A stretch of 64,000 nt of DNA from Patescibacteria group bacterium (GTDB lineage: Bacteria > Patescibacteriota > Minisyncoccia > Phycocordibacterales > UBA918): NCBI GenBank assembly GCA_040386275.1, contig JAZKFU010000008.1:176219-240218 (forward strand). The letters are read 5' to 3'. The notes under the pieces were generated by a model that did no database searches, was not told where the DNA came from, and saw only the letters and a list, made by a program, of their open reading frames with translations. Below are positions 12,585-57,865 of this stretch, in pieces. The stretch's first letter is position 1. Every line of letters begins with the position of its first letter. Made by a program: the position numbers and the translations under genes.

Positions 12585-12700
12585 CTTTCAGAATTGGCGA
12601 ACTACTGCGTTAGCCTGCGTAAAATAATCCTCACCGTACAAAAAGTACGGCTCGTCATATTTTACTAGTCTGCCTTGTATTTCATCCAATTCTGAAAGTT
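12585..12700 (-). repeat. dispersed ~90-nt element, copy E1 (reverse orientation), overlapping a 58-bp local direct repeat
   Basis: reverse complement gacgagccgtactttttgtacggtgaggattattttacgcaggctaacgcag matches the consensus seen at 13741, 17535, 27325 and 57779. Confidence 0.6.
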
Positions 12701-12837
12701 CTAAACCATACTTTGATTACTCATACAACTAATTTTTGAGGCAATTTTTTCTTATATTTGGAAAATCGCTGGACCGCTGCGAAAGATGTTCTTGCGCTTC
12801 TAGCACTGCACTCAATTTAAAATTCCTTACCCTATAT

Positions 12838-12895
12838 AAAGTACGGCTCGTCATATTTTACTTGTCTGCCTTGTATTTCATTCAATTCTGAAAGT
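12838..12895 (-). repeat. 58-bp direct repeat copy E2 (about 92 percent identical to 12642-12699), partial copy of the dispersed element
   Basis: aaagtacggctcgtcatattttact(a/t)gtctgccttgtatttcat(c/t)caattctgaaagt present twice, 196 bp apart. Confidence 0.6.
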
Positions 12896-12999
12896 CCAAA
12901 TCTATTACTTGGGTACTTCAAATTGTTTACTACTGATTGATTTACATAATGTAGATATGTGATATAAAAATTGGTAGAAACATCCTTGTGGGGAGGTAC

Positions 13000-13470
13000 A
13001 TGATGTCGACTGCTCTTTGGACTATTGGTTTTATCGTGTTTGTTTTACTGGTTCGATTGATGATGAGACGAGTCGCACTGTCTCGGCTCTACTCCTCGAA
13101 TCTGTTCAAGTTTTTGCAATCAGATGAATGGAAATCAATTCAAGACTGCTATGATGCCGGCTTTCGAAAGAAAAGTACAGCAAGGATACTGGAGTTTTTC
13201 TACCAGCAGAAGCGTCTTGAAGTGCGGTTACCAGATCATAGGTTCAACTGCGAAGCTTGTGGCGTACATATTGCTGACCGAGTCATACGTGACCCAAATT
13301 TCAATTATGATGATCTCCCCAAAAATCTGACATTGGAGGAACTCAAAAAATCATTTTTGAAACCTTTGAAGACAATATGTTCGATACCTACAATATGGGG
13401 TACTTTGAGTTTCGAACAGTTAACAGAGGAGGTCAGCCTCGCCGACAACAGCAAGAACGTTTTAAATTGA
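13000..13470 (+). CDS. hypothetical membrane-anchored protein
   Basis: gggagg SD 3-6 nt before ATGATG at 13000; N-terminal TM helix; the ORF-track start at 12988 is a GTG upstream of the SD. Confidence 0.45.
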   Translation: MMSTALWTIGFIVFVLLVRLMMRRVALSRLYSSNLFKFLQSDEWKSIQDCYDAGFRKKSTARILEFFYQQKRLEVRLPDHRFNCEACGVHIADRVIRDPNFNYDDLPKNLTLEELKKSFLKPLKTICSIPTIWGTLSFEQLTEEVSLADNSKNVLN

Positions 13471-13504
13471 AGCAAGTTCTGGTCAATGCATGACCCCAAA
13501 ACAA

Positions 13505-13535
13505 AAGTGCGACCCCACCAGGGTCGCACTTAAAT
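13505..13535. terminator. hairpin terminator
   Basis: gtgcgaccc-cacca-gggtcgcac perfect stem, AT-rich flanks. Confidence 0.45.
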
Positions 13536-13740
13536 TTTATATACATTTCTCACCAAGATTACTTTAAAAAAGCTAGCTTCAACTCGGACAGCTAATATAC
13601 TCTAAAGGATTTCTTAAAATTGATTAGATTCAAGTGAGAAAGCGTATAGCTTTCGCAAGACCATTTGAGATTATTTTATTTTTATTAAAAATAAAATAAT
13701 TCATATGGTGTACAGCTCATGTAAGGAGGCGTGAGTAAAA

Positions 13741-13815
13741 AAATTAGGAGACGTACTTATTGTACGTTGACGATTATTTTGCGAGCTGCAACGCAGAAGC
13801 TAACGATTTTTAGGA
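13741..13815 (+). repeat. dispersed ~90-nt element, copy A
   Basis: gacgtacttattgtacgttgacgattattttgcgagctgcaacgcagaagc: hairpin plus conserved tail. Confidence 0.55.
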
Positions 13816-13818
13816 ATT

Positions 13819-14916
13819 CTAGATTAGGAATTCGATTACGTCTCCATCTTTCACAATATACTCCTTCCCTTCCGTCCGCATCTTTCCCTGTTCTTTGGCT
13901 ACTGCTTTACTACCCGCGGCTACTAAATCTTCAAAGGTGATGACTTGGGCGCGGATGTATTTTTTCTCAAAATCAGTGTGAATGGCGGCGGCTGCGCGGG
14001 GGCCGGTGCTACCAATGGGAACGGTCCAGGCACGAGTTTCTTTTTCACCGGTGGTGAAGTAACTCATAAGCCCTAAACGGTCGTAACAAGCGCGAATTAA
14101 GCTTCCTACACCACTATCTTGAGCGCCGTACTCTCTCCGGAAGTCATTTTTTTCATCTTCACTTAAGTCACGAAGCTCATGCTCCATCCCGGCATCAACC
14201 ACGACGTATTCACTGCCCGATTCTTCAAAAAATTCAACCAGGTCTTGCCACCGACTATCGTTTTGTTCATCCAGGTTAAAGGCGTCAGTTTTTTTGTTGC
14301 AGATGTATAAAAACGGCTTCATCGTTAACAGGTGCAGGGCTTTAACGGCTTTGATTTCTTCCACCGTCATGGATAGTGTATTCGCCAGCTGACCTTCACG
14401 TAAATGTGGTAACAACCGCACGAGCACATCACGTTCAAGGATGGCATCTTTGTCTCCCTTTTTCGCATCACGTTCAACATTCCCCAAACGCTTTTCTACG
14501 GTTTCGGTATCTGCAAATACCAATTCTAAGTTAATCACTTCAATATCACCCAACGGATCAACTCCTCCAGATACGTGGTGAATATCACTATCTTCAAAAA
14601 TACGTACTACTTGCGCAATCATGTCCGTCTCACGGATGTTAGCGAGGAATTTATTTCCCAGTCCTTCACCGGTTGAAGCTCCTTTCACCAACCCTGCAAT
14701 ATCAACAAACTCCACCACAGCTGGGATGATTTTGTCTGTTCCGGAAATTTTTGCCAAGGTGGCTAAACGACTATCTGGTACGGCAACCACACCCACGGTT
14801 GGGTCAATGGTCGCAAACGGGTAGTTTGCAATTAAAACCTCATTTTTAGTGAGGGCGGTAAAGAGCGTTGATTTACCAACGTTTGGGAGTCCAACAATTC
14901 CAACTGAAAGTGACAT
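13819..14916 (-). CDS. ychF: ribosome-binding ATPase YchF (Obg-family GTPase)
   Basis: MSLSVGIVGLPNVGKSTLF G1 motif, DIAGLV, C-terminal TGS domain; start set at the conserved Met rather than the longer ORF. Confidence 0.85.
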   Translation of the reverse strand: MSLSVGIVGLPNVGKSTLFTALTKNEVLIANYPFATIDPTVGVVAVPDSRLATLAKISGTDKIIPAVVEFVDIAGLVKGASTGEGLGNKFLANIRETDMIAQVVRIFEDSDIHHVSGGVDPLGDIEVINLELVFADTETVEKRLGNVERDAKKGDKDAILERDVLVRLLPHLREGQLANTLSMTVEEIKAVKALHLLTMKPFLYICNKKTDAFNLDEQNDSRWQDLVEFFEESGSEYVVVDAGMEHELRDLSEDEKNDFRREYGAQDSGVGSLIRACYDRLGLMSYFTTGEKETRAWTVPIGSTGPRAAAAIHTDFEKKYIRAQVITFEDLVAAGSKAVAKEQGKMRTEGKEYIVKDGDVIEFLI

Positions 14917-15061
14917 AGTATAAAAATGATTTAAGAAAGCGTGGCGGGAATAAACCAACCACGCTTCTGACACATGACCTGTCGAGTCTTGGGGAAGATG
15001 AGCGACAGATCAAACGTCAGGCCTGATTTATACCACACTAGTACCGATAATAAAAGCCTCA

Positions 15062-15904
15062 TTAGAACAACGGCGCAACGTATTCACAGAATTCAATTTC
15101 GGAAACATCCTTTTCTAATTTTTCTGCAAAGTACGCTTTGACTGAGTCTCGATTACCAATGGCATCAATTAACTTAGCCTCTACCGCTTTTTCTCCAATG
15201 ACTGTACTACCGTCGGCGAGCTTGTTCACCTCTTCTTCTGAAAGATTTCGGTTCTTCGACACCAATTTCACAAACTCATTTTTTATCGTATCCAACTGTC
15301 CTTGGAAGTAGGTCCGATCTGATTCACTTAACGGTTTATTAGGGTCGCCAGCATCTTTAAATTCGCCCGTTGTTAAGGGGACATAGGTCAGACCTTCTTC
15401 TTCGTTTTTCTTTGATTCTTCTACGTATGACATCGTTACTCCAATACTCCCGACATCAGACATTGCTGAGGCAAAGATTCTATCAGCCGCTGAAGCCACC
15501 ATATATCCACCTGATGCCCCAATATCGCCAATTAACGCTACGTTTGGTAACTCAAGCGCACTAATCTGTTTGGCGATATCTTCGGCTGCTACTGGAGTAC
15601 CGCCCGGTGAATTCACTTCAAAGAGCACACCTTCAATAAACAACTCATCATCAGAGACCAACTTCAAAAAATCTCGCACGTCCTTAGGGGTAACGGCAAA
15701 TTCAGGATAGAGCGCTCCTGTTCCCCACGGCATAATCACGCCTTCAATCGGCATTACTGCAATATTACACTCCCCATCACTTACTGAGCTATAGCCGAAA
15801 CTAAAAAACATAATAATGACACCCAGTAACACCAGCGTCAGGATTACTCCAAACACTTTTAACAACACACTCGCGAGTTCACGTCCAAAAGATATAGTAG
15901 GCAT
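15062..15904 (-). CDS. sppA: signal peptide peptidase SppA (S49 family, 36K type)
   Basis: N-terminal TM; GDIGASGGYMVASAADRIFA catalytic-serine region typical of S49/ClpP-fold peptidases. Confidence 0.75.
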   Translation of the reverse strand: MPTISFGRELASVLLKVFGVILTLVLLGVIIMFFSFGYSSVSDGECNIAVMPIEGVIMPWGTGALYPEFAVTPKDVRDFLKLVSDDELFIEGVLFEVNSPGGTPVAAEDIAKQISALELPNVALIGDIGASGGYMVASAADRIFASAMSDVGSIGVTMSYVEESKKNEEEGLTYVPLTTGEFKDAGDPNKPLSESDRTYFQGQLDTIKNEFVKLVSKNRNLSEEEVNKLADGSTVIGEKAVEAKLIDAIGNRDSVKAYFAEKLEKDVSEIEFCEYVAPLF

Positions 15905-15927
15905 TAGAAACGATTATACTATAGATA

Positions 15928-16323
15928 CTACCAGTTAAGATAGGTTATCGTACACTGCAACGTCGTCGCTATACTCACCCACACCAAATACGGAATATTT
16001 ATATAGGTTACCCAGGGAGCGTAGGGATAAATGACATACATCAGCCACACTAATGTTCCTAAAACCAAGAATATATCTATCGCTGCCAAAAGATTATTTT
16101 GCAATCCAAACTGAATGGGTGTAAAAATAGCGTTAAAAAATAAATTGAGCACAAACGGTGCAGCTACCCATAACGGAATTTCTCCCTGATAGATTTTGTA
16201 AAACACATACCCAAAGGAAATGGCGATAAGCGTATACAGTACCGACCAAATTGGACCAAACACCCATGATGGCGGCGCCCACTCTGGTTTAATTAAAGTC
16301 GCGTACCATTGTTGTGTATTCAT
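15928..16323 (-). CDS. tspO: TspO/MBR family tryptophan-rich sensory protein
   Basis: WYATLIKPEWAPPSWVFGPIWSVLYTLIA matches the TspO signature; multi-TM, Trp-rich; somewhat short at 131 aa. Confidence 0.75.
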   Translation of the reverse strand: MNTQQWYATLIKPEWAPPSWVFGPIWSVLYTLIAISFGYVFYKIYQGEIPLWVAAPFVLNLFFNAIFTPIQFGLQNNLLAAIDIFLVLGTLVWLMYVIYPYAPWVTYINIPYLVWVSIATTLQCTITYLNW

Positions 16324-16360
16324 AGCGCCAGTATATCACGAAGGAAATTTTGAAAATTAA

Positions 16361-16397
16361 AAACGGGCGCCTCTTGTATGAAGAGGCGCCCGTCAAA
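16361..16397 (-). terminator. rho-independent terminator for the lipoprotein gene
   Basis: gggcgcctctt...aagaggcgccc stem; T-run on the minus strand. Confidence 0.6.
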
Positions 16398-16401
16398 TTG
16401 T

Positions 16402-16758
16402 TTAGTAGTACACCACCCTGCGTCCGCGACTCTGTTTGTAGGTGAAGTACATGTCCCAGTCGTGTTGAAACTGGTAGATCTTCACCCGACCGTGACGATA
16501 GGAATCGTATTCTCCCCGATCACGGATAGCCGTCATGGGAACGTACGAACAGCCAGCCGGCAAGTTCATTCCTTCCCGATGGTTGTCGAGGTAATCGTAC
16601 AGGCCAGCCATCGTCGTGCACGCGAGAACCGATTCACCTCGCGGAAACATTTTCTGCGCCCGCGATGGCTTGTTCGAGTAGACGGTCGTTGTCTCGATGT
16701 AGACATCGCCCACACAGCCCGACACTGCAAACATCATAAGTAGAAAGAGAACTTTCAT
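16402..16758 (-). CDS. small lipoprotein
   Basis: MKVLFLLMMFAVSGC signal peptide with lipobox VSGC; start set at this Met. Confidence 0.5.
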   Translation of the reverse strand: MKVLFLLMMFAVSGCVGDVYIETTTVYSNKPSRAQKMFPRGESVLACTTMAGLYDYLDNHREGMNLPAGCSYVPMTAIRDRGEYDSYRHGRVKIYQFQHDWDMYFTYKQSRGRRVVYY

Positions 16759-16837
16759 CACCGTTTCCTCCAATAAATCCAACCAATATAATACATCAAA
16801 TATCAAAAAAGTCAACCAATTGGCTGACTTTTTCTAC

Positions 16838-17416
16838 TTATATTCCCTTTCGTCCCATCACTTCCATTTCTCTTAGCCACTTCTCTCGACAGATACCATC
16901 AACTTTTTCACAGGGCCCGTAGGCAGAAACTGCAGTGCGCAATCCAGCAAACTCGAGGATTCCGTATTGAATTTCATTGGTAAAGTCACCAAAGTTCCAC
17001 CAGGTCTTAAACGGAGAGTGCGAACCAGACAAAATAATCACCCGAGCCGTTCGTCCTTTAAGGTGTTTTTCAATACGCTTGGTTTCTTTATTAAAATTAA
17101 ACGCAAAACCTGGTAACCAAAAACGATCAAACAAGCCTTTAAGAATAGCTGGCATCGTACACCACCAGTTCGGGTAGACAATCATAATGTGATCAGCGTC
17201 GCGAAATTTGTTTTGCAAATCAAGCAAATCTGGTTCCAAGTGTTGAATCTCTTTGTACCCTTTGTGCAAAATGGGGTCAAAATTAAGTTCACCAATATTA
17301 ACCCGCACCACAGTGTGTCCCGCATCTTCAGCTCCGGCTTGATAATGATCTGCTGCATTCCCACTAAACGAATCTTTGTCCGGGTGCCCACACAACACGA
17401 GAATTTTCTTTGACAT
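16838..17416 (-). CDS. flavodoxin-like fold NAD(P)H dehydrogenase (quinone) family protein
   Basis: MSKKILVLCGHPDKDSFSGNAADHYQAGAEDAGHTVVRVNIGELNFDPIL matches Flavodoxin_2/NQO-like proteins. Confidence 0.65.
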   Translation of the reverse strand: MSKKILVLCGHPDKDSFSGNAADHYQAGAEDAGHTVVRVNIGELNFDPILHKGYKEIQHLEPDLLDLQNKFRDADHIMIVYPNWWCTMPAILKGLFDRFWLPGFAFNFNKETKRIEKHLKGRTARVIILSGSHSPFKTWWNFGDFTNEIQYGILEFAGLRTAVSAYGPCEKVDGICREKWLREMEVMGRKGI

Positions 17417-17534
17417 AATTAAACCAAGTATAACGCAACAGTGCGCAGACAAAGTCCACGCACTGTTGATTACTCTTATCTTCAAATCAATTTTTTAATT
17501 TTAGTGTTCAAGTAGACATTCAGAAACGAGTGCA

Positions 17535-17630
17535 GTGCTAGGAGCGCAAGAATAATTTTATGTAGACGTACTTCTTGTACGGCGGAATAAAATTTTCGTA
17601 GCAGCGACAACGCAATGTGCCGTTTGTGGA
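17535..17630 (+). repeat. dispersed ~90-nt element, copy D
   Basis: gctaggagcg...atgtagacgtacttcttgtacggcggaataaaattttcgtagcagcgacaacgcaatgtgccg. Confidence 0.55.
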
Positions 17631-17643
17631 TGTCGTCTCTACT

Positions 17644-17958
17644 TTAGCGTCTTATAGATCCATTGGGATTGAATTTGCCCTGACTGCCCATCTGCATCTT
17701 CATCATCTTCTCCTTCATTTCTGGGGTCATGGCGCCCATGATTTCTTGCTGGTACTTCGGTAAGACCTTCATTGCTGCTGTCATTTGATTATTACCGTTA
17801 CTTTTAAGCTCGGCTTGCATTTCTTTGGCGATTTTTTCGAACAAAGCCGGGTCTTTTTCCAACATGGTCATGATCATTTCTTGTTGATCAGCGGGCACAT
17901 TTTTCATTTGTGACTGAATCACCTTCTTTACTGCAAAATTTTTTATTTTTCCAAACAT
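17644..17958 (-). CDS. hypothetical Met-rich small protein
   Basis: 104 aa, many MxxM/MKM motifs; no domain recognised. Confidence 0.35.
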   Translation of the reverse strand: MFGKIKNFAVKKVIQSQMKNVPADQQEMIMTMLEKDPALFEKIAKEMQAELKSNGNNQMTAAMKVLPKYQQEIMGAMTPEMKEKMMKMQMGSQGKFNPNGSIRR

Positions 17959-18028
17959 ATAGTCAGAATTTTACCATACTCTCCTTATTATTTCAGAAAA
18001 TCTAAAGTATAGACAAATCAGTAAAAAA

Positions 18029-19657
18029 GTGTTATTATTCCGCCATTATTCAATAGTAGTTATATGTATGGCATTTTTGAGCAACTTATTTGACCGAGCG
18101 ATTACCTTTATTAGTTTTATAATTTTTGGTGTGTTATTTAAGACACTTCTACGAACTGCTATCACATTATTGGTGGTAGCGTTTGCGGTGTACTTCCTTT
18201 TCTTTGCTGGTGAGGCAGTAACTGATGAACAAACAGCGGAAACGAAACTTCTGACCGTAGTGGTTGAGAGTGCGGCCAATACCAGTGGCGACAGTACCTT
18301 TACGGCTGTTGGAACACTGCAAGCTGTATCTGAAGCTAAACTCCAAACGGAGTCAGGTGGACGAATTATCGGTGTTTACACTGAACTTGGTGCCAATGTG
18401 CGAGCGGGCTCTATTATTGCACGTCTGGAAGGGTCATCTGAAAGCGCACAGCTCTTGCAAGCGCAAGGAGCGTATGAAGCAGCGATTGCTGGTTCTGCTC
18501 AAGGTGATGTAGGAAAAAATGAAGCTGAAAATGCCAAACGTGCTGCCCAAAACGCTGCAGTAACTACGTACAAAAATGCCTACACGTCTGTCTCGGGCGT
18601 AGTATTTACCTCACTTGATAAATTCTTTGCCAATCCAAACTCACAAGTTCCTGGAGTACGTATTAGTAAGGCCAATACATCGTTCCAAAATATGGAACGA
18701 GTGAACCTGCAAACTACCCTTCCCGCCTGGCAATCAAAAGCCAACTCGCTTACCACTACTAGTAACCTTAACGGCGCTTTAACTGAAGCTGAAATAACTA
18801 CAAAGAAAGTATTGGCTATGGTTGATGATTTTATCATCGGCTTTAACAATGAAGACGCAAACATCCAATACACTGCCGCTGATTATATTCGCTTTACTAG
18901 TGAATTTAATGCACTGCGTGGTCAACTCGTAGGGATTCTGTCGAGTATAGATGCTGCTCGTACTGGCCTCGCTAATGCCGACGAAGCTATCAAGCGAGCA
19001 TCAATTGCAGGTTCAGGCAGTCAGGTATCAAGTGCCGACGCTCAAATCAAAATCGCCCTTGGTTCACTTCGGGCCGCTCAAGCTAACTACGAAAAAACTT
19101 TGGTTCGCTCACCAATTAACGGTGTGGTAAACGCGCTCTACCTAAAAACAGGTGAATACGCTGCGCCTTCTGCGCCAGCGGCTATTATTGCAAACAACAA
19201 CCAAGGTCTTGAAGTTTCAACCTCAGTTAGTCAAGAAGAAAGTGCGCTCATTAAAATTGGCGATCAAGTACGCATTGATAAAGTAGCGAACGGTACAATC
19301 GCAGCCATTGGTGGCTCGATTGATCCAACGACGGGTAAAGTAGCGGTTAAAATTAGCGTCGACGAAAACAACACTCTACAAAACGGTTCAACCGTTTCAG
19401 TAGTATTCACGACAGCGACGAGTTCAGATACATCTGAAGTGAGTATCCCCCTTTCTGCAGTTAAAATGACCGGTAGTGGGCCGATTGTGTTTACTGTTGA
19501 TGCAGACACCAATACCCTCATTTCAAACCCAGTCGTGCTCGGGAACATCCGTGGTGATGTGGTGGTAGTCACTGAAGGAATCAACCGCGATACTCCAATC
19601 GTTACTGATGGACGTGGACTTAAAGAAGGAGCAGAAGTAACAATCGAAACTAAATAA
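18029..19657 (+). CDS. efflux RND periplasmic adaptor (membrane fusion protein, HlyD family)
   Basis: N-terminal TM, long coiled-coil region, TLVRSPINGVVNALYLKTGEYAAP beta-barrel motif; immediately upstream of the RND pump. Confidence 0.75.
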   Translation: MLLFRHYSIVVICMAFLSNLFDRAITFISFIIFGVLFKTLLRTAITLLVVAFAVYFLFFAGEAVTDEQTAETKLLTVVVESAANTSGDSTFTAVGTLQAVSEAKLQTESGGRIIGVYTELGANVRAGSIIARLEGSSESAQLLQAQGAYEAAIAGSAQGDVGKNEAENAKRAAQNAAVTTYKNAYTSVSGVVFTSLDKFFANPNSQVPGVRISKANTSFQNMERVNLQTTLPAWQSKANSLTTTSNLNGALTEAEITTKKVLAMVDDFIIGFNNEDANIQYTAADYIRFTSEFNALRGQLVGILSSIDAARTGLANADEAIKRASIAGSGSQVSSADAQIKIALGSLRAAQANYEKTLVRSPINGVVNALYLKTGEYAAPSAPAAIIANNNQGLEVSTSVSQEESALIKIGDQVRIDKVANGTIAAIGGSIDPTTGKVAVKISVDENNTLQNGSTVSVVFTTATSSDTSEVSIPLSAVKMTGSGPIVFTVDADTNTLISNPVVLGNIRGDVVVVTEGINRDTPIVTDGRGLKEGAEVTIETK

Positions 19658-19659
19658 AT

Positions 19660-22836: not shown

Positions 22837-22840
22837 CAAT

Positions 22841-22873
22841 AAAAAACCGCAGGCAATCGCCGGCGGTTTTTTT
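22841..22873. terminator. bidirectional terminator
   Basis: aaccgcaggcaatcgccggcggttttttt; A-run before and T-run after. Confidence 0.55.
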
Positions 22874-22884
22874 ATATGTACAGT

Positions 22885-23385: not shown

Positions 23386-23465
23386 AGCTATATAGTAGCC
23401 TACACCAAGCCCTCCTGTGCAGCCGCACTGTTTATTACCTAAATTTGATATACTAAAGTATCACT

Positions 23466-27223: not shown

Positions 27224-27324
27224 AGATTATATCACGAAAAGCAAATAATTCAACCCCACAGTATGGTGAGATGTTCAGTACGTTTTTACAATCAACGCAG
27301 ACAATATGAGGTGTTTTTTAAAAT

Positions 27325-27425
27325 CGAGCAGATGCGCGACGACAAGTAAAATAATGATGAGCCGTACTCCTTGTACGGTGAATTATTATTTTGCGCAGGC
27401 AACAAAGCAGGTGCCGATTTTTAGA
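27325..27425 (+). repeat. dispersed ~90-nt element, copy B (followed by a partial second copy to about 27490)
   Basis: gatgcgcgacgacaagtaaaataatgatgagccgtactccttgtacggtgaattattattttgcgcaggcaacaaagcaggtgccg. Confidence 0.6.
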
Positions 27426-27432
27426 AACAACG

Positions 27433-28071
27433 CTAGGAGCGACCTTCTTTATCTAGGACAAATCTCACAACTTGGACGATGTAGACGAATATAAACAAAT
27501 AAATAATCGCATCCCCTATCGGCTTCATGTATGTCTCGACAATCGAATAGTCACTTAACGCAAAGTACCCAATACTCATTAAGGCTGTGTTCCAGATAAT
27601 CAATCCCGCAAGTGAATACGCCACAAACTTTTTAAAATTCATCCGCACACTCCCCGCTGGGATAGAAATCACCGAGCGCACACCGGGAATCATCCGGCCG
27701 AAAAATACCGCGGGGATTTCATACTTCACAAAGTAATCTGTCGCCTTATGAAAATCTTTTCCGGAAATCGCAACGTACCCCCCGTACTTTCGAAAAAATT
27801 TCTCTAGCTTTGCCGCCGGTGCAAACCACCCGAGCGCAAACCAAAACAACGTACCCAAAAACGAACCAACACTCGCGGTAATTAGCGCAAGGACAAAGTT
27901 CAGTTCCCCTTTAGCCACCGAGTGGCCCACAAACGGCAATACTACTTCAGACGGAATCGGCGGAAAGATATTTTCTGCCACCATCAAAATAAACACGCCC
28001 CAATACCCATTTTGGGAAATAAAGTTAATTACTGCTTCAGCCATATAGTGGATACAGTATACAAGTCTCAT
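27433..28071 (-). CDS. DedA family membrane protein
   Basis: ENIFPPIPSEVVLPFVGH DedA signature; multi-TM. Confidence 0.7.
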   Translation of the reverse strand: MRLVYCIHYMAEAVINFISQNGYWGVFILMVAENIFPPIPSEVVLPFVGHSVAKGELNFVLALITASVGSFLGTLFWFALGWFAPAAKLEKFFRKYGGYVAISGKDFHKATDYFVKYEIPAVFFGRMIPGVRSVISIPAGSVRMNFKKFVAYSLAGLIIWNTALMSIGYFALSDYSIVETYMKPIGDAIIYLFIFVYIVQVVRFVLDKEGRS

Positions 28072-47439: not shown

Positions 47440-47443
47440 GCAT

Positions 47444-50161: not shown

Positions 50162-50198
50162 CCCCGCCTGTCGGTAAAGGTGCTTATTTCAACACACT

Positions 50199-50621
50199 TT
50201 ACTTGGCAGTACTTTTGGCGAGTCGGCGTACTTCAGCGATTAATTCATTTAAATCAGTCATCGCTTTGATGCGGTAGGCGCTAGCACCGAGCTCAATGGC
50301 TTTTGATCGTTCATTATCGCCACTTTTATTAGAAAATATTATCACGGGTGTAGCCTTCACCTGTTCATCGGCTTTTAACTCAGCCAATACCTCAAACCCA
50401 TCTTTACCTGGTAGCATCAAGTCAAGTACAATAACTTGCGGGTCAAATTGTTTTGCTAAATCGAGAGCTTGTAATCCATCATTACTAAACATGTGCGGGC
50501 AATGACTATTAGAGAGCTTTACGGAAAGCATATTACGAAGTAGTGGATCATCTTCAACCACCAGTACGCGCACCACTGCTACGTCTTCAAATACTGGTGT
50601 CAAGGGTGCATAGATAGCCAT
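50199..50621 (-). CDS. receiver-only response regulator
   Basis: VLVVEDDPLLRN...VIVLDLMLPGKDG; no output domain. Confidence 0.75.
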   Translation of the reverse strand: MAIYAPLTPVFEDVAVVRVLVVEDDPLLRNMLSVKLSNSHCPHMFSNDGLQALDLAKQFDPQVIVLDLMLPGKDGFEVLAELKADEQVKATPVIIFSNKSGDNERSKAIELGASAYRIKAMTDLNELIAEVRRLAKSTAK

Positions 50622-50627
50622 AAAATA

Positions 50628-51053
50628 TTAGGTAAGGTTATTAGTAGTAGTAGACAGCGCTTCAACGATTTTAGCTATTACTTCATCCGGTGCAAAATTG
50701 GCTTTGATAATATAATCTCGAATCCCTAGTTTTTGGATTCTTTCAATTTCAATAGATTGACCAGAATTTGATATTACGATTACGGGTAATTGTGGCGTTA
50801 TCTGTTTACTGGCTAACACGTCGAGAATTTGATACCCCGTTAATCCGGGTAAATGGATATCGAGCAGTAATAAATCGGGCAACGTTTTTTCGATAGACGC
50901 CAAACACTCTTCTCCGTTTACAAAATGCGCGACAATTACTCCCTGCATTTCTAATTTTTGAATAATAACACTTGCCAAAAAGGTATCGTCTTCTGCAAGG
51001 TAAATGGTTTTATTTGTCAGGGTAAATTCATGCATAGTAATATTGTATACCAA
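50628..51053 (-). CDS. receiver-only response regulator
   Basis: IYLAEDDTFLAS...LLLLDIHLPGLTG; no output domain. Confidence 0.75.
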   Translation of the reverse strand: MVYNITMHEFTLTNKTIYLAEDDTFLASVIIQKLEMQGVIVAHFVNGEECLASIEKTLPDLLLLDIHLPGLTGYQILDVLASKQITPQLPVIVISNSGQSIEIERIQKLGIRDYIIKANFAPDEVIAKIVEALSTTTNNLT

Positions 51054-51060
51054 ATACTGA

Positions 51061-51894
51061 CTATACGCTCCCGGTATGGTGCTTAAACGTTAGGGTAAAG
51101 GTGCTCCCCAGACCTTCACGGCTCTCAAATCGAACGGTACCACCAAGAGAATCCATGATTTTAGACACAATATATAAACCCAGTCCATAGCCGTCAGCAT
51201 CAACTTTTTTGGCATTTTCGGCCCGAGAAAACCGTTTGAAGATTTTATCTTCATGCGCAATCGGTATACCGATACCAGTATCTTCTACTGTGACAATAAC
51301 AGATTCATCAACTACCTTGACACGCACTGTTACGGTTCCACCGGCAAGGGTGTATTTAATGGCGTTATCAATAATATTTACAAGCACATCTTTTACTGAA
51401 GAAGCGTCGGCTAACACAATCGCAGGAGTCGGAGCAAGATCTACCAAGACACGAACGTTGTGTTCAGTGGCTTTATTGATAAATTCATCACACGACTCTT
51501 TAACGAGTACATTAATATTGATAGGCAGGGCGGGCTTGAGTTCGGTTTGTAGCTCCAAATGTTCAACTTCAAGGAGGTTATTAACGAGCTTTACTAAGCG
51601 TACAGTACTTTGCTGGGCCAACGAGACAACGTCTCGTTGCCTGGGATTAAGTTCACCCAAATCTCCATCGAGCAACATCTGTTGCGACCAACGTAAGGCC
51701 GAGAGTGGAGTTCTGATTTGGTGGGCAGCGATTGATATAAATTCTGATTTCTGGGTGTCGAGGGTTTCTAGTTTGATATTAGCCCGGCGTAACTGCAAAT
51801 CACGCTGTACTAAGAGACGGGCGCTTTTATCCATTGAATCAACAATCGCGTTTAAGCGATAGATTTCATTTTCTAATTCTTTTACCCTATCCAT
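51061..51894 (-). CDS. soluble histidine kinase (HisKA + HATPase_c)
   Basis: H-box AAHQIRTPLSALRW; G-box GYGLGLYIVSKIMDSLGG; no TM segments. Confidence 0.75.
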   Translation of the reverse strand: MDRVKELENEIYRLNAIVDSMDKSARLLVQRDLQLRRANIKLETLDTQKSEFISIAAHQIRTPLSALRWSQQMLLDGDLGELNPRQRDVVSLAQQSTVRLVKLVNNLLEVEHLELQTELKPALPININVLVKESCDEFINKATEHNVRVLVDLAPTPAIVLADASSVKDVLVNIIDNAIKYTLAGGTVTVRVKVVDESVIVTVEDTGIGIPIAHEDKIFKRFSRAENAKKVDADGYGLGLYIVSKIMDSLGGTVRFESREGLGSTFTLTFKHHTGSV

Positions 51895-51912
51895 AGATTA
51901 CACAGCACTACG

Positions 51913-53115
51913 TTATTCTCCCAAAAGCGTTATTACGACGGTTTCATTATGTAGTTGAGGAGTACATTTATTAATGGAGTATGACGTACCATTAATTGGT
52001 GCTTGTTCAGCATACGTATAGAAGCCGATGATGGGAACGTCTTTTCCAATAACTGCTTGAATGGCTTGAATTTCCTCTCGGGCAGTTTCTTTATCCGCAA
52101 ACAGCGTATTACGTACGTGGCAACTAAAAATGAAAGCTACTTTAGGGGTCGTACCTAAATTTTCCAGCGCTGAGGTTGCGGCGCGGCTCGCTGCGGCTAT
52201 CGCATCTTCTTTTGACCCCACCATTAATTGTACTTGGGAACCTTCAAGCACTTCACCACCGCAGACAATAGAACCATCCTCAGTTACAGCAAACGGAGCG
52301 CGCAAAAGAAACTCCTCACTATGTGTATCTTTAATTCCAAGCGGGTAGGACAGAGCCACTTCTCCTAACATTACTTCTCGAAGATTGGAGATTTCCTGTA
52401 CACCTAAATACCGTTCATACAACGAGACGGCGGGCTTATGATTTATTTCATGAATGGTGGTGCCAACAGACTTCGTTATGATTTGTGGTGCGCCAACTAC
52501 ATTCCAGCCATGATTCACTCCTACAGAGTATTTAAAATTCCCCGAGAACCCCACCCCCACTACGGCATCAGTTTGAACTTCAGCACCAAAAAATTGATGG
52601 GTTTCCACTAATTTTCCATTATCACCAGCTGACCCTCCAACCACCGGGAAATTCTGACCAAGAACGGAAGTAACCCCCCGCAATACCGCTGAGCCGTTCC
52701 CTTTTAATCCGTCTGCAAACATCATGACGAGTTCGGGATTATGGGCTTGGAGTTGCGTGGCGAGAGCACTTCCCGCCGAAGTTGAGTCAGCTGTCAAATT
52801 CGGAGCGATAGCAGTGGTACAGGTAAGCGTATCGGAAGCAAGCACCATAATAGCTACGGAATCCCGCATAGTAGGGCCTGCTTTAGTAATTTCTCCGGCG
52901 GTTGAAGCGCCAACCACTTTCACCATATCGCCTACGACTGAGGTTACACCTTTAAGAACAGCCGTATGATCAAATGAACTTGAAGCAAACACAAACGCAA
53001 TATGTGCAGGCATTGCACTCTGAGCCAGTAGCTCTTGCAGGGCTTGATTCACCGCATTCACTCCCGCAACAAAACTATCCGCATCAGAACTCGTTCCAAT
53101 TCCAATTGATACCAT
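51913..53115 (-). CDS. FIST domain sensory protein
   Basis: 400 aa; two-lobed FIST N/C pattern (FVFASSSFD..., VVGASTAGEI..., GFYTYAEQAPING...HNETVVITLL). Confidence 0.55.
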   Translation of the reverse strand: MVSIGIGTSSDADSFVAGVNAVNQALQELLAQSAMPAHIAFVFASSSFDHTAVLKGVTSVVGDMVKVVGASTAGEITKAGPTMRDSVAIMVLASDTLTCTTAIAPNLTADSTSAGSALATQLQAHNPELVMMFADGLKGNGSAVLRGVTSVLGQNFPVVGGSAGDNGKLVETHQFFGAEVQTDAVVGVGFSGNFKYSVGVNHGWNVVGAPQIITKSVGTTIHEINHKPAVSLYERYLGVQEISNLREVMLGEVALSYPLGIKDTHSEEFLLRAPFAVTEDGSIVCGGEVLEGSQVQLMVGSKEDAIAAASRAATSALENLGTTPKVAFIFSCHVRNTLFADKETAREEIQAIQAVIGKDVPIIGFYTYAEQAPINGTSYSINKCTPQLHNETVVITLLGE

Positions 53116-53149
53116 AGGATTATATTACTTATTAATACCGTAAGTATAG

Positions 53150-53195
53150 CAAACAAAAACCCCCGCTCTGTGAGGAATCGGGGATTTATAGGTAA
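53150..53195 (-). terminator. rho-independent terminator downstream of uvrB
   Basis: cccccgctctgtgaggaatcggggg stem; tttttgtttg on the minus strand. Confidence 0.5.
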
Positions 53196-55337
53196 TTAAA
53201 ACAACCCTTTCTTCTTCTTGACTTTGATACCCGTGGACTGTTCTTCAAAAAAAGCAATTTCATCACGAATAATAGCTGCGGTTTCAAAATCGAGAATGGC
53301 TACCGCGTCTTCCATTTGCTGACGTTTTTCTTTAAGGACTTTAGCGGGGTTACGTTTAAAGAGTTCTACGTCGACCTTAAGCAAAGTTTCTACTGTTTCG
53401 TCGTGTTCGGTGCGCATCTGATCGGTAATTGATTTAATGTCTTTGGCGATAGTAGTCGGAGTAATGCCATGTTTGGTATTATGAGCAACTTGAATCGCGC
53501 GACGACGATTAGTTTCATTTATGGCGTACGTTAACGCATCAGTCATTTCATCCGCATACAGAATCACGCGACCCAACACGTTACGAGCAGCACGACCAAT
53601 CGTTTGAATTAACGCCGTCTCACTGCGAAGGAACCCAGCCTTATCAGCATCAAGAATCGCTACTAGCTCCACTTCCGGTAGGTCAAGCCCTTCACGCAGT
53701 AAGTTTACCCCCACTAAACAATCAAACTTCCCTTTACGAAAATCAGTTAAGATTTCGATTCGTTCAATAGTTTTAATATCACTGTGAATATACTTGGTGT
53801 TTATTTTCTTCTCCGTTAAAAATTCAGCCAAGTCTTCAGCCATTTTTTTTGTTAGCGTAGTTGTAAGCACTCGACCTCCGCCCGCTATGACCCGCTCTGC
53901 TTCGGCGATAAAGTCTTTAATCTGCCCTGGGTAGTCGCCAATTTGATTTACTTTCCGTAAATCAATTTCCGGATCAATTAACCCCGTTGGGCGAATAATT
54001 TGTTCAACCACAGCACCTTTTTCAAGACAAAGATTAAGGTCAAAACCTTTAATCCACTCTGACCGAATGGATTTAACTTCCCCGGCCTTTTGCACAGGCG
54101 GACAGGCCATAGGACAACATAGTTCGTATTCTAATCGTCCTGGAGTAGCTGAGGTGTAGATTCGTTGTCCTACGCGTTCATCAAATTCAGCGTATTTAAG
54201 CGGCCGGTTATCAACGGCCGACGGTAATCGAAAGCCGAATTCAACCAGCGTGTCTTTACGACTACGATCGCCCGCATACATACCATTTAATTGCGGCAAC
54301 GTTACGTGCGACTCATCAATAATGGTGAGAAAATCTGGTTTTCCTTCAGGTGTGTGAGGGAAATATGATAACAGCGTAAACGGTGCTTCGCCGGGTTTAC
54401 GACGATCAAAGTGTCGCGAATAATTTTCAATCCCGTTACAGTAACCAATCTCACGCATCATCGCTAAGTCGTGATTGGTGCGCCGACGCAACCGCTCTGA
54501 TTCAAGCAACTTGCCTTCTTTTTTAAATTTCTTTAATTGTTCATCGAGCTCAAGTTTTATATCTTCAATGGCAACTTTCCGCTCATCTTCTGGTGTCACA
54601 AAGTGTTTGGCTGGAAATAAGAAAAAGACTTCCGGTTCCTCAATAATGGCGCGACTAACACTATCAATTTTGGTAATTGATGAAATGACATTTCCTGAAA
54701 AGCCCAGACGATAAATCATCCGTTCGTTGGTGGGCATGATTTCAATGGTATTTCCGACCGCCCGGAAATGACCAGGCAATAAATCAGCGTTGGTTCGTTC
54801 AAAGTACATATCAATCAAGATACGCAGTAACTCCATCCGCGTCGTTTCAAACCCGCGTTTAATCTGTAAATGTTTCTTTAAATATTGGGCTGGCGAACCC
54901 AATCCATAAATACATGATACTGAAGCCACAATAATCACGTCTTTTCGCGTTAACAACGCTTGGGTTGACGCGTGCCGCAATCGGTCAATCTCTTCGTTTA
55001 CCTGCGATTCCTTTTCAATAAACGTGTCTGAGGTTGGCATGTACGCCTCTGGCTGGTAGTAGTCGTAATACGACACAAAGTAATGCACGGCATTATTAGG
55101 AAAAAAGTCCCGGTATTCTTGCGCGAGCTGAGCCGCCAGGGTTTTATTGTGAGCAATAACAAGCGTCGGTTTTTGAATCTGCTGAATCACATTCGCCCCG
55201 GTAAACGTCTTTCCTGACCCAGTAACACCTAAAAGTGTCTGGTGTTTTTGCCCAGCCCGTACCCCCGCCACCAACTGTTCAATCGCCTTAGGCTGATCCC
55301 CCGCTGGTGTTTTTTCCGTAGAAATCTCAAATTGCAT
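53196..55337 (-). CDS. uvrB: excinuclease ABC subunit B
   Basis: MQFEISTEKTPAGDQPKAIEQL N-terminus, Walker A GVTGSGKT, helicase motifs, C-terminal UVR domain AAIIRDEIAFFEEQ; start at the internal Met. Confidence 0.9.
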   Translation of the reverse strand: MQFEISTEKTPAGDQPKAIEQLVAGVRAGQKHQTLLGVTGSGKTFTGANVIQQIQKPTLVIAHNKTLAAQLAQEYRDFFPNNAVHYFVSYYDYYQPEAYMPTSDTFIEKESQVNEEIDRLRHASTQALLTRKDVIIVASVSCIYGLGSPAQYLKKHLQIKRGFETTRMELLRILIDMYFERTNADLLPGHFRAVGNTIEIMPTNERMIYRLGFSGNVISSITKIDSVSRAIIEEPEVFFLFPAKHFVTPEDERKVAIEDIKLELDEQLKKFKKEGKLLESERLRRRTNHDLAMMREIGYCNGIENYSRHFDRRKPGEAPFTLLSYFPHTPEGKPDFLTIIDESHVTLPQLNGMYAGDRSRKDTLVEFGFRLPSAVDNRPLKYAEFDERVGQRIYTSATPGRLEYELCCPMACPPVQKAGEVKSIRSEWIKGFDLNLCLEKGAVVEQIIRPTGLIDPEIDLRKVNQIGDYPGQIKDFIAEAERVIAGGGRVLTTTLTKKMAEDLAEFLTEKKINTKYIHSDIKTIERIEILTDFRKGKFDCLVGVNLLREGLDLPEVELVAILDADKAGFLRSETALIQTIGRAARNVLGRVILYADEMTDALTYAINETNRRRAIQVAHNTKHGITPTTIAKDIKSITDQMRTEHDETVETLLKVDVELFKRNPAKVLKEKRQQMEDAVAILDFETAAIIRDEIAFFEEQSTGIKVKKKKGLF

Positions 55338-55401
55338 GACTATCCAGTATACCCCGCCCCCCATAATATAAAAAGCCACCCCACCCCCGCCACCATTTCA
55401 C

Positions 55402-55463
55402 ACAAGTACGAGGTTAAACCTCGTACTTGTGCACTCTAAGTCCGAGGTTTAACCTCGAACTTG
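55402..55463. repeat. REP-like palindromes (two tandem copies) upstream of the transposase gene
   Basis: acaagtacgaggtt-aa-acctcgtacttgt perfect inverted repeat at 55402-55430; degenerate copy gtccgaggtttaacctcgaacttg at 55439-55463. Confidence 0.7.
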
Positions 55464-55486
55464 TTGTATCCTTAATTTAAATATCT

Positions 55487-56080
55487 ATGGGAAATAGATT
55501 ATTTACTTTTTCAAGTAATGAAATCTACCACTGTTATAATCGCGGTGTAGATAAACGTACTATATTTGAGGACCAGCAAGATTTTATATATTTTTTAAAA
55601 CTTTTAAGAAATTTTAATACCTCAAAAGTATATGGAAATTTAAGATTATCTCTCAATAAAGAGCCCATAAATCCTCCAGTAACAATACTTACGTATTGCT
55701 TACTTCCAAATCACTTCCATATAGTAATACGTAATAATAGTGACGAGGGAGGATTATCAAAATATATTCAACGAGTTGTAGGCGGTTACACGATGTATTT
55801 TAATCAAAAACATAAAAGAAGTGGTGCTTTGTTTCAAGGAACGTTTAAAGCAAAACATATTGAAACAGATTTGTATTTACGTCATATTTTAGCCTACGTA
55901 CGGTATAACAATATTGTTCACGATGTAGAAGACAAAAATTTGTACCGGAGCTCATTAAATACAAAAGACGACTTAGTACGAGGTTTAACCACAGACCTAG
56001 GAGAAGAAAATATGTTGGAAGTAGTTAAAATTATAAAAGAAATCAGAAGTACGAGGTTAAACCTCGTACTTGAGGAGTAA
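55487..56080 (+). CDS. tnpA: IS200-like / REP-associated tyrosine transposase (HUH Y1 family)
   Basis: YHCYNRGVDKRTIFEDQQDFIYFLKLL, HUH motif LLPNHFHIVI, catalytic-Tyr region AYVRYNNIV; the C-terminal 10 codons read through the right REP. Confidence 0.75.
   Translation: MGNRLFTFSSNEIYHCYNRGVDKRTIFEDQQDFIYFLKLLRNFNTSKVYGNLRLSLNKEPINPPVTILTYCLLPNHFHIVIRNNSDEGGLSKYIQRVVGGYTMYFNQKHKRSGALFQGTFKAKHIETDLYLRHILAYVRYNNIVHDVEDKNLYRSSLNTKDDLVRGLTTDLGEENMLEVVKIIKEIRSTRLNLVLEE
56045..56075. repeat. REP-like palindrome (right flank, inside the tnpA 3' end); a partial extra copy lies at 55974-55990
   Basis: agaagtacgaggttaaacctcgtacttgagg. Confidence 0.7.
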
Positions 56081-56087
56081 ATATAAA

Positions 56088-56128
56088 AATTGACGATGGG
56101 GCGCTTATGCCCCATCGTCTTTTATTTT
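56088..56128. terminator. bidirectional terminator
   Basis: gacgatggggc-gcttat-gccccatcgtc 11-bp stem; A-run before and ttttatttt after. Confidence 0.65.
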
Positions 56129-56394
56129 GCTTTTGTCCAGCCATATGACTGCAACACTAGACTGAACCGCACTTCTTTTTCTGAAGTTGGAGCTTCTGAA
56201 CTGTGCTCCATCCGTACGTTGATGAGACCGGTAAAAGGATCTGCGATTACTCCTACCACCTTGTGCGGTAACTCATAATCGGCTTCTTTGGGAAGAATCG
56301 CGACACGTGTACCCAATTCAGGGGGAACGATGAATTTTGACGTAAGTAATAGGTCTTCACCCGCAACCGTCATACGAAGAACAACAGTGTTCAT
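56122..56394 (-). CDS. hypothetical protein (90 aa)
   Basis: ORF only. Confidence 0.35.
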   Translation of the reverse strand: MNTVVLRMTVAGEDLLLTSKFIVPPELGTRVAILPKEADYELPHKVVGVIADPFTGLINVRMEHSSEAPTSEKEVRFSLVLQSYGWTKAK

Positions 56395-56439
56395 GGAATT
56401 TCTCCTCCTACTATTTAATTCCTAAGGTACAGGAATTTG

Positions 56440-57681
56440 TTATTTTTGCAACAATTGGTCACGCAAATTCTTTGTGAAGTTGACGATGAAATTTAGGTTG
56501 TGGATGGAGGCTAGGTGGGGGCCGAGGATTTCGCCAGCGCGGAACAAGTGGGCTACGTAGGCTTTAGTGTAGGTTTGAGCGACGTGGCCGGTTGAGAGTG
56601 GATCAAGGACGGAATGATCGGTTTTATATTTGGCGTTTAAGAGACTAATTTTTTTAGTTACCGGATAGGTAAAGGTACCACACGGAGTAGTTTTCATTTC
56701 ACCGGTTAGTACATAAATTGTTCCCGTGCGACCAATACGAGTGGGAGCGACACAATCAAAGGTGTCACAGCCCATCAGGATGCCTTGGACGATGTCTTCT
56801 GGCTCACCAATACCGAGCAAGTGACGTGGTTTGTCTTCAGGGAGGATTTCGTTAACAACCCGGAGACTATCTCCCAAATCATCTTTAGAAAAGCTACCAC
56901 CAATACCAAAGCCATCAAAGTCCATATCAGATAATGCCCGGGCTGACTCTTGTCGCAAATCTAAAAATTGACCACCTTGAATCACACCATAGAGACCTTG
57001 CTTCTTTAAGGCTTCATAATTATTTTTATGCGCCATAATACTGCGTTTAGCCCAACGATGCGTACGGTCCATTGCTTCTTTTTGGTAGTCACGGTCGGCT
57101 GTAGGGCTGGTACATTCATCAAAGGCAATAATGATGTCAGCCCCAATAGCATGCTGGATATCAATCGAACGTTCAGCAGTAAAGCGATGCATTGAACCAT
57201 CAAGATGTGATGTGAAGGTTACGCCTTCTTCATCGATAATACAAAGCTTGCCGTGATCTTCGGCCACTTTAAGGGAATAGACATTGAGTCCGTGTTTTTC
57301 TACCGCATCACTGACATCGCCCTGCGCAAACTTAGTAACCCCTTTGCCAAAAGCAGCTCCTAAACTAAACACCTGAAAGCCACCGGAATCGGTCATAGTG
57401 GGCATCTGCCAATTGGCGAATTGATGTAATCCACCCGCTTCTTTAATTACATCGTGACCAGGCTGAAGGAATAAGTGGTAGGTATTGGCGAGGGTAACTT
57501 GATTGCCAACGTACTGTTTTAAATCTTCCGGCATCAGACTTTTAACACTTGCTTTGGTTCCCACCACCACAAATGCTGGCGTTTGAATGTCACCATGGAG
57601 CGTCGAAATCACTCCCGCGCGCGCGAGGTTCCCTTTCCCTTTTGCCTCAATCTTAAACGTAACCGGTTTTGTAATAGCCAT
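56440..57681 (-). CDS. tgt: queuine tRNA-ribosyltransferase
   Basis: TIM-barrel Tgt motifs: TPAFVVVGTKASVK, LANTYHL, GIGEPED, Zn-site CDTFDCVAPTR; start at MAITKP. Confidence 0.85.
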   Translation of the reverse strand: MAITKPVTFKIEAKGKGNLARAGVISTLHGDIQTPAFVVVGTKASVKSLMPEDLKQYVGNQVTLANTYHLFLQPGHDVIKEAGGLHQFANWQMPTMTDSGGFQVFSLGAAFGKGVTKFAQGDVSDAVEKHGLNVYSLKVAEDHGKLCIIDEEGVTFTSHLDGSMHRFTAERSIDIQHAIGADIIIAFDECTSPTADRDYQKEAMDRTHRWAKRSIMAHKNNYEALKKQGLYGVIQGGQFLDLRQESARALSDMDFDGFGIGGSFSKDDLGDSLRVVNEILPEDKPRHLLGIGEPEDIVQGILMGCDTFDCVAPTRIGRTGTIYVLTGEMKTTPCGTFTYPVTKKISLLNAKYKTDHSVLDPLSTGHVAQTYTKAYVAHLFRAGEILGPHLASIHNLNFIVNFTKNLRDQLLQK

Positions 57682-57778
57682 AAACCCCGATACTATACAC
57701 GAAAACCAAAACAAAAACACAAACCAAATGTTTGTGTTTTTGCCTCTAATCTATTAACTCTAAAATTGTTTAAATTAT

Positions 57779-57865
57779 TCGAGATGCGCGAAGGACAAGT
57801 AAATCATCGTGAGCCGTACTTCTTGTACGGTGAATGAGGATTTGCGCTGGCCGACAAAGCAGATT
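57779..57865 (+). repeat. dispersed ~90-nt element, copy C
   Basis: cgagatgcgcgaaggacaagtaaatcatcgtgagccgtacttcttgtacggtgaatgaggatttgcgctggccgacaaagcag. Confidence 0.6.

Follow-up and report, generated by a model that had tools for sequence, protein, structure and literature searches.

A dispersed hairpin element of about 123 nt in Patescibacteria, resembling known families of palindromic repeats

A stretch of 64,000 nucleotides from a Patescibacteria group bacterium (GenBank assembly GCA_040386275.1, contig JAZKFU010000008.1, positions 176,219 to 240,218; hereafter the window) raises the question of what kind of sequence recurs there, as a hairpin with a nearly constant core, in the spacers beside unrelated genes. 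An earlier note on this DNA had described a dispersed non-coding element of about 90 nt and had suggested either a repeat of the REP (repetitive extragenic palindrome) or MITE (miniature inverted-repeat transposable element) type or a small RNA family. Our analyses are best explained by a new, non-autonomous family of palindromic repeats of ~123 bp, MITE-like and comparable in kind to the ERIC (enterobacterial repetitive intergenic consensus) and RPE (Rickettsia palindromic element) families, which are the closest known ones in behaviour. We give this reading an even chance of being right. Among its grounds are the gain and loss of copies at orthologous sites and a copy density that differs sharply between related lineages. 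The element is absent from Rfam and from the literature searched; it is best filed as a new family of a known repeat kind.

The six sites listed in the note are real members of one family. The core pattern GCCGTAC-N5-GTACGG, with one mismatch allowed, was found at 4 sites of the window (8 strand matches) against 0.03 expected, and an independent repeat detection joined all the listed copies of the hairpin element. In addition, a covariance model (R1) was built from 87 copies of other genomes and 4 of the window, and the window was scanned with filters off; its E-values are approximate, the model calibration having been shortened. The 7 matches obtained correspond to 5 recognisable copies and 2 fragments. 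The unit turned out to be longer than the 90 nt proposed, namely a long, imperfect, rod-like hairpin of ~123 nt (median 123 nt across 116 copies). The good copies of the window fold as one hairpin of 110–125 nt, with minimum free energies ranging between −41 and −53 kcal/mol and z between −4 and −8 with respect to shuffled sequence.

The full-length copy nearest to the family consensus (12581-12703, minus strand; R1 100.2 bits; fold −53.1 kcal/mol, z −8.3) has its 3′ end, which is the lower coordinate, 1–2 nt from the TAG stop codon (12577-12579) of a plus-strand gene of 89 amino acids (aa), and it has positional counterparts in the loci L125-L129 and L184 of relatives. Three other full-length copies lie on the plus strand. 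That at 17512-17636 (57.1 bits; −45.2 kcal/mol vs. −26.8 for its complement) is located between a flavodoxin-like gene and a minus-strand 104-aa gene, 8 nt from the stop of the latter, with a positional counterpart at L125:133-254. The copy at 27309-27431 (82 bits; −45.9 vs. −28.1 kcal/mol) ends 2 nt from the stop of a VTT/DedA gene (27433-28071, minus strand), and that at 57761-57883 (82.7 bits; −41.5 vs. −18.8 kcal/mol), between tgt and an FKBP gene, has a modelled 3′ end which overlaps the TAG stop of the FKBP gene (57878-57880, minus strand). A diverged copy (13692-13820, plus strand; 46.8 bits), with the core GGAGACGTAC-TTATT-GTACGTTGA and a C-G pair of the apical stem replaced by A-U, abuts with its 3′ end the stop codon of the minus-strand ychF. 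This copy and the two fragments are decayed. The first fragment (12786-12899, minus strand; 20.9 bits) has no stable fold (z −0.7) and joins half an element, duplicated from 12623-12721 (83% over 99 nt), to a piece like the 5′ arm of the 17512 copy; the partial duplicate noted before at 12838-12895 falls within this chimeric, degenerate fragment. The second, a core-only fragment at 4081-4141 (plus strand; 32.6 bits, model positions 30-95), was also recovered by repeat detection and is new with respect to the note. On the other hand, the partial tandem copy reported past 27425 gave no model match and comes down to a 10-nt word, GCTAGGAGCG, lying mostly inside the next ORF (open reading frame), and the loop variant aaaaa is ttttt read from the other strand.

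Directly after the 4081-4141 fragment there is a module, GTCCAGCGATTTTCC, at 4144-4187, with an inverted copy at 12731-12774. This short module (GGTCCAGCGATTTTCC plus ~30 nt) stands beside an element fragment in both places, and the same GGTCCAGCGATTTTCC module replaces the usual 3′ arm of the element in the Kaiserbacteria locus L047. The elements appear to be mosaics of exchangeable modules.

The element is not limited to the window. When the exact 18-base core, GAGCCGTAC-N5-GTACGGTGA, was searched for in one genome of each species, at least 117 loci were revealed, with ~17 chance matches expected; evident chance matches, such as one in a Streptomyces ORF, were few among the matches listed. 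It must be noted that the copies outside the window were found through the exact core, which biases both the core invariance and the list of taxa, and that genes in these seeded loci were called by a longest-ORF heuristic. The R1 model gave 116 matches in the 725 kb of seeded loci, and ~18 extra copies without the seeding core were found. Many further copies exist and, as described below, the stems covary, contrary to the outcomes which the note had named as refuting its idea. Most of the listed loci belong to Saccharibacteria, Kaiserbacteria, Paceibacteria and Zambryski-, Uhr-, Vogel-, Yanofsky- and Nomurabacteria, and a minority to Rokuibacteriota, metagenome-assembled genomes (MAGs) of Bacillota or Clostridia, a Treponema MAG, Myxococcales, Gammaproteobacteria, Janthinobacterium and Herbaspirillum (Oxalobacteraceae). 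The taxon labels of MAGs may reflect binning errors; one record outside Patescibacteria, Janthinobacterium violaceinigrum strain FT13W, has no MAG label. The tgt product of the window is 100% identical to a protein of a Patescibacteria MAG, and its nearest named relatives are Candidatus Kaiserbacteria. The neighbours of the copies are unrelated genes, as had been noted, with the commonest neighbouring protein family present in at most 10 of the 117 listed loci. Rfam 15 at the gathering threshold yielded only two tRNAs in the window, and at E-value thresholds of 5, 10, and 0.1 no family overlapped any element copy. The literature search found no description of such a repeat in Patescibacteria nor of the core sequence.

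Comparison of orthologous sites revealed filled and empty ones. The FKBP-tgt spacer contains the element in the window and in L121/L122 (TGT 88% identical) and an unrelated hairpin in L118-L120, while in L123 the two genes abut with no spacer. The hairpin of L118-L120, a 44-nt palindrome at L118:9889-9932 (AACACCCTCAAGTATTGCGATT/AATCACAGTACTTGAGGGTGTT), bears no relation to the element, and the spot just past the FKBP stop codon seems to collect hairpins. The ychF regions of 80 relatives (403 kb) contained 10 element matches, 8 of them in relatives with a YchF identity of at least 87%. Given these few matches, the high density of the window, one copy per 9 kb, is lineage-specific.

The region next to ychF illustrates a difference in gene content. 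With respect to L125:4598-4778 (YchF 96% identical), window positions 12704-13820 have ~1.07 kb extra between the 12581 copy and ychF, which consists of the 12786 fragment, an orphan ORF of 160 aa (12988-13470) and the inverted 13692 copy. The ORF has a hydrophobic N-terminus, its own bidirectional terminator and no family matches, on account of which it was rejected as a transposase; it was found in only one other contig (~97% DNA identity), where a scaffold gap falls at the informative place. The segment looks like a gene gained between element copies and, therefore, the element may mark or promote gene gain. In the same neighbourhood, an endonuclease/exonuclease/phosphatase-family gene (11306-12190, minus strand; region 11266-12292) is absent from L125, where its flanks are 41 nt apart.

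Copies were also found within genes. In Saccharibacteria, in-frame copies are present in the genes of IleRS, Mur ligase, ArgRS (two genomes, same site) and Fpg, all of them long ORFs confirmed by Pfam whose domains are interrupted. These intragenic copies always use one reading frame of the antisense strand (..DALLTHRTSSTARSATP..; ..HRT.STA..). The IleRS insertion is present in L017, while the related IleRS of L099 is without it there and has one elsewhere. Together with the dispersed copies, the long stem-loop and the filled and empty sites, they bear out the suggestion of a REP/MITE-like repeat.

The structure of the element was analyzed on a MAFFT alignment of 91 copies, for which RNAalifold predicted 22 pairs, 15 of them with compensatory changes. 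Paired cells amounted to 90.4% vs. 69.4% in column shuffles, and cells with changes on both sides to 458 vs. 147. The covariation score was 0.513 (0.142 in shuffles) and fell to 0.12 or less when the 3′ partner was slid by 1–3 columns. The variation of the hairpin loop, previously taken as covariation-like, is not covariation, while compensatory changes in the stems are abundant and support the structure. The apical stem is invariant in this set because the search pattern selected it; among 48 model hits including copies not chosen by the pattern, 5 of its 7 pairs showed double changes (e.g., C-G to A-U, U-A, or G-U). This stem is conserved in sequence (GAGCCGUAC-N5-GUACGGUGA, with one G.U pair and flanking tandem G.A), as is an internal loop (..AUGCNAGGCG / CAACRNNGCAG..), and the covarying stems lie between loop and apex. 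Nearly all listed copies share a 5′ motif, ..(C)AGAUGCNAGGCG.., and a 3′ motif, ..CAACRNNGCAGAUG.., with variable complementary stems between the motifs and the core. All copies have a paired basal stem, and the ends of the Kaiserbacteria type have the consensus TAAAAC...GTTTTA, yet conservation is lowest at the ends of the element and highest at its apex. A position which reads GTAG in some copies reads GATG, AATG, or others elsewhere. The alignment also shows an A-tract/U-tract arrangement around the inner hairpin; the U-tract follows in the Kaiserbacteria and Paceibacteria type, and Saccharibacteria-type copies are without it.

The two strands are not equivalent. In 111 of 113 copies, the strand bearing GAGCCGTAC..GTACGGTGA, which we call sense, has a more stable fold than its complement (on average −59 vs. 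−46 kcal/mol). At variable pairs G.U is about three times as frequent as A.C on this strand, and two wobble positions are conserved, with G.U in 90 and U.G in 38 of the 91 copies. Wobble pairs thus accumulate solely on the core-bearing strand, which is not that of the mRNA. Judging by the established mutational asymmetries, a bias from deamination of the coding strand would act the other way; therefore, the strand asymmetry is read as selection, either for the fold of the core-bearing strand or against a strong hairpin on the other, both of which keep the palindrome.

The placement of the copies relative to genes follows the same polarity. In 63 of the 79 intergenic cases among the listed loci, the gene on the 3′ side lies on the opposite strand with its stop codon within a few nt of the element end; towards the 5′ side, the distance to the next gene varies. 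Relative to the hairpin base, convergent stop codons concentrate between −1 and +3 nt, with a tail to −25 nt, so some ORFs end within the basal stem. This placement was found in all 6 assessed copies of the window and also in copies of Janthinobacterium, Herbaspirillum, Rokuibacteriota, and a Clostridia MAG, large genomes included, and 7 of the 8 true intragenic copies are antisense to the host gene. The window copies 12581 (minus) and 13692 (plus), 1 kb apart, face opposite ways and each is antisense to its own abutting gene, with the same pattern in L125 (133/4652). Therefore, orientation tracks gene transcription and not the replication fork, and a setting of orientation by replication can be ruled out. 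The 3′ untranslated region of the mRNA receives the weakly folding strand. Past the element, three window copies are followed by ordinary terminator-like hairpins (17468-17436, 57746-57708, and 13531-13505); thus, the element is wedged between stop codon and terminator and is not the terminator of the gene. A scan for intrinsic terminators flagged the apical stem of only one copy, which has no real T-tail. In L039 and L059, element copies are present on both sides of rpsG (ribosomal protein S7) in the rpsL-rpsG-fusA cluster, both antisense to the operon; a highly expressed polycistronic unit thus tolerates the element.

How does such an element compare with known repeats? Bacterial MITEs are 100–200 bp in length, form long stem-loops and can be fused in frame to ORFs (PMC2229807), and the element agrees with such MITEs in having a stem-loop of ~100–200 bp, copies dispersed next to unrelated genes and without coding capacity of their own, filled and empty sites, and in-frame ORF fusion. 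With ERIC, also known as IRU (intergenic repeat unit; 127 bp), it has in common a similar size, an imperfect palindrome with a single long stem-loop, dispersal near ORF ends and across genera, a copy number variable between lineages, no known transposase, and an orientation that matters relative to transcription (PMC2229807). It differs from ERIC in sequence, with no similarity between them, and in host range, ERIC being found in enterobacteria and vibrios and the element in Patescibacteria and a few other phyla. It further differs in the antisense orientation of ~80% of its copies towards the gene whose stop codon they adjoin, in the wobble pairs on the strand that is not the mRNA, and in that neither TA ends nor a target duplication are clear in it. 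Hulton and colleagues are said to have described in 1991 the central inverted repeat of ERIC as its best conserved part, as it is in the element.

RPE (105–146 bp) is likewise palindromic, resides in the reduced genomes of host-dependent bacteria and occurs both in intergenic regions and within conserved protein genes, inserted in a reading frame that remains open (PMC2229807). However, RPE is limited to Rickettsia, while the element spans many classes of Patescibacteria as well as other phyla, and the two sequences are unrelated. RPE copies have also been reported within RNA genes of Rickettsia, including that of RNase P RNA. For the element only one copy was seen beside an RNase P RNA gene: in a Herbaspirillum MAG (L075:2523-2984) this gene (Rfam RF00010, 224 bits) lies on the same strand as the copy, which ends 11 nt upstream of it. 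The Correia or NEMIS repeats of Neisseria resemble the element as hairpin-forming MITEs of 107–155 bp that are present in transcripts and sometimes fused to ORFs, but they have 24-bp terminal inverted repeats, a TA duplication, a site for integration host factor (IHF) and an entirely different host range. The Correia centre (..GCCGTACTATTTGTAC..) may resemble the core of the element.

Under the repeat-family reading, propagation of the element or continuing constraint on it would require the fold of one particular strand, as the restriction of wobble pairs to that strand suggests. Copies would survive mainly where the neighbouring mRNA does not contain the strongly folding strand, since a very stable hairpin directly past a stop codon or inside an ORF would probably harm the host. 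Such harm would explain the antisense orientation of ~80% of copies towards the gene at whose stop codon they lie.

It must be considered that several observations weigh against this reading. No clear target-site duplication was detected: flanking direct repeats with k=5 occurred in 6 of 23 cases vs. 3.6 in shuffled partners, and with k=6 in 4 vs. 1.5. T and A occupy positions +1 and +2 in just 57 and 48% of cases, respectively. No transposase partner came to light, none being enriched near the copies in the 117 listed loci, and the exact core was not found in the viral contigs of IMG/VR, possible carriers between lineages. Window copies are only 60–73% alike, which gives no indication that transposition has occurred recently in this genome. 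The sequence conservation of ~45 nt across phyla is unusual for a MITE, and an apex conserved most with ends conserved least is the reverse of what MITEs derived from insertion sequences show. Finally, six genomes have a copy at the ychF/89-aa gene site although the four-fold synonymous sites of their ychF are saturated with respect to the window (identity 0.29–0.36). The copies there still score 64–89 bits and have 0.62–0.73 identity to the window copy, from which they differ by several compensatory changes, e.g., GCCGUAC/GUACGGU to GCCGCAC/GUGCGGU. Copies retained at the same site in this way look more like constraint in place than like the decay of neutral junk.

Positional counterparts are as dissimilar as paralogues (0.60–0.73 identity, vs. 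0.51 for shuffled sequences with the same aligner); therefore, what survives at these sites is the family consensus. This may reflect either constraint on the resident copies or repeated re-occupation of the sites, and it is the main reason why we still grant a minor share of probability to a host function. In that alternative, which we consider rather unlikely, the element would be a cis-element serving the host at gene 3′ ends, between stop codon and terminator, and kept by selection. One possibility is that the strong hairpin of the antisense strand, followed by the U-tract of the Kaiserbacteria and Paceibacteria type, halts antisense or divergent transcription into the gene; another is that the version on the mRNA strand tunes translation termination or the decay of the mRNA, for which REP and ERIC provide described examples. 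The effects of ERIC on mRNA stability are reported to depend on its orientation (PMC2229807). The position of the element 3′ end, a few nt from a convergent stop codon across phyla including Janthinobacterium and Rokuibacteriota, agrees with a host role, as do the same-site retention despite saturated synonymous sites, with its compensatory changes, and the A-tract/U-tract arrangement around the inner hairpin. However, the terminator-like hairpins further downstream at three window copies indicate that the gene is not terminated by the element, copies of the Saccharibacteria type have no U-tract and lie inside ORFs, close relatives are without the element at the same sites, and decayed copies exist. 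Moreover, any hairpin would serve such a role, which leaves the conserved core sequence unexplained.

A broader form of this idea is that the element is a functional, strand-specific structured nucleic acid, selected in place across Patescibacteria and several other phyla and read by a conserved protein at the stop-codon boundary, either as folded template-strand DNA or as antisense RNA. We regard it as doubtful. If it were true, its role could possibly be to insulate genes from antisense transcription where the genome has only a minimal regulatory machinery, and the element would represent a new class of structured element, beyond a new repeat. In the same regard, a constraint due to host function, if real, would point to a nucleic-acid-binding factor common to much of the group.

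The suggestion of a small RNA family fared worse. Independently transcribed small RNAs of ~120 nt, made from the well-folding strand in convergence with the adjacent gene, and perhaps from a bidirectional promoter that also serves the gene on the opposite flank, would fit the G.U pairs and the fold asymmetry, which indicate one strand, and the strong covariation; in addition, the conserved internal loops and tandem G.A may be likened to protein-binding RNA motifs. Against this, no enrichment of positioned −10-like hexamers was found upstream of the hairpin on the sense strand with respect to the other strand, and an apparent enrichment upstream vanished once the opposite strand of that region served as control. 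Promoters are hardly possible for intragenic copies, and the surrounding transcription units run antisense to the better-folding strand. Upstream of the 13692-13820 copy, on the same strand, there is a bidirectional terminator (13505-13531), no Rfam family matches, and an apical stem conserved in sequence with a free loop is the reverse of usual RNA-protein recognition. We therefore judge this alternative improbable.

Equally improbable, in our estimation, is that the element is a REPIN (hairpin of two REP units) moved as folded single-stranded DNA by the REP-associated tyrosine transposase (RAYT) of the window, an association raised in the earlier note that did not hold on examination. In two accounts (PMC3733652, PMC3116915), REPs are described as units of 20–40 nt with a GTAG or CGTC tag, and REPINs as two such units at the ends of a hairpin. 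The element is like them in being an extragenic hairpin at gene 3′ ends with the ~100-nt size class of REPINs (~120 nt here), and a strand-specific fold would be expected of a single-stranded DNA substrate. A candidate enzyme is also at hand, since the ORF at 55487-56080 (plus strand) encodes a RAYT-like Y1/HUH transposase (Pfam Y1_Tnp 26.7 bits, cut-off 23; HUH motif NHFHIV; NCBIfam REP_Tyr_transpos, E 6.8e-11, under the family cut-off), and the order tgt - RAYT - uvrB is kept in relatives, each with different flanking hairpins. But this gene is flanked by a short hairpin of its own, AAGTACGAGGTTAAACCTCGTACTT, unlike the ~123-nt element, with copies on the left (55404-55431 and 55438-55463) and inside the 3′ end of the ORF (partial at 55975-55995, full at 56047-56073). 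The RAYTs of L118 and L121 are flanked by their own short hairpins as well; L118-L120 have the RAYT and no element in 21 kb; and a RAYT homologue is present in only 2 of the 117 listed loci, neither flanked by the element. Furthermore, the conserved part of the element is its apex and not two REPs at its ends, and it has no fixed GTAG or CGTC tag. On these grounds we make no link between the two. The RAYT of the window represents in its own right the classic single-copy RAYT/REP arrangement in a Patescibacteria genome.

Other identities were discarded: streptococcal BOX, RUP, or SPRITE repeats, because tgt homologues place the window in Kaiserbacteria-like Patescibacteria; domain V of group II introns, whose lower helix the core resembles (GAGCCGUA..UACGGU, including the G.U), as the upper helix, bulge, and GNRA loop are absent and the Rfam intron model gave no match; a kink-turn, because the tandem G.A lies within a continuous helix without a 3-nt bulge; an integron attC site, in view of the absence of arrays, the mixed orientation of the three copies around ORF 12988-13470 and the lack of RYYYAAC/GTTRRRY consensus ends; and phage carriage, owing to the absence of the exact core from IMG/VR.

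What stands out in the element is that it is conserved across phyla, that only one strand keeps the fold, and that its placement is strictly antisense to the stop codon. Patescibacteria genomes are among the smallest and most streamlined in bacteria, and the persistence of dispersed repeats is unexpected there. An element common to Saccharibacteria, Kaiserbacteria, Paceibacteria, and others would mark gene flow and possibly recombination hot spots, and it would account for odd low-complexity insertions in the aminoacyl-tRNA synthetases of Patescibacteria. It is, in addition, a recurrent source of assembly breaks and a testable case of a structural constraint specific to one strand.

Two minor observations concern the leucyl-tRNA synthetase gene of the window, an ORF of 947 aa (5371-8214, minus strand). 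Its product has a Pfam NUDIX domain at aa 388-515, inserted past the editing domain (34.8 bits, cut-off 21.1), and a weak relative of the hairpin that flanks the RAYT is located inside the gene at 7376-7407.

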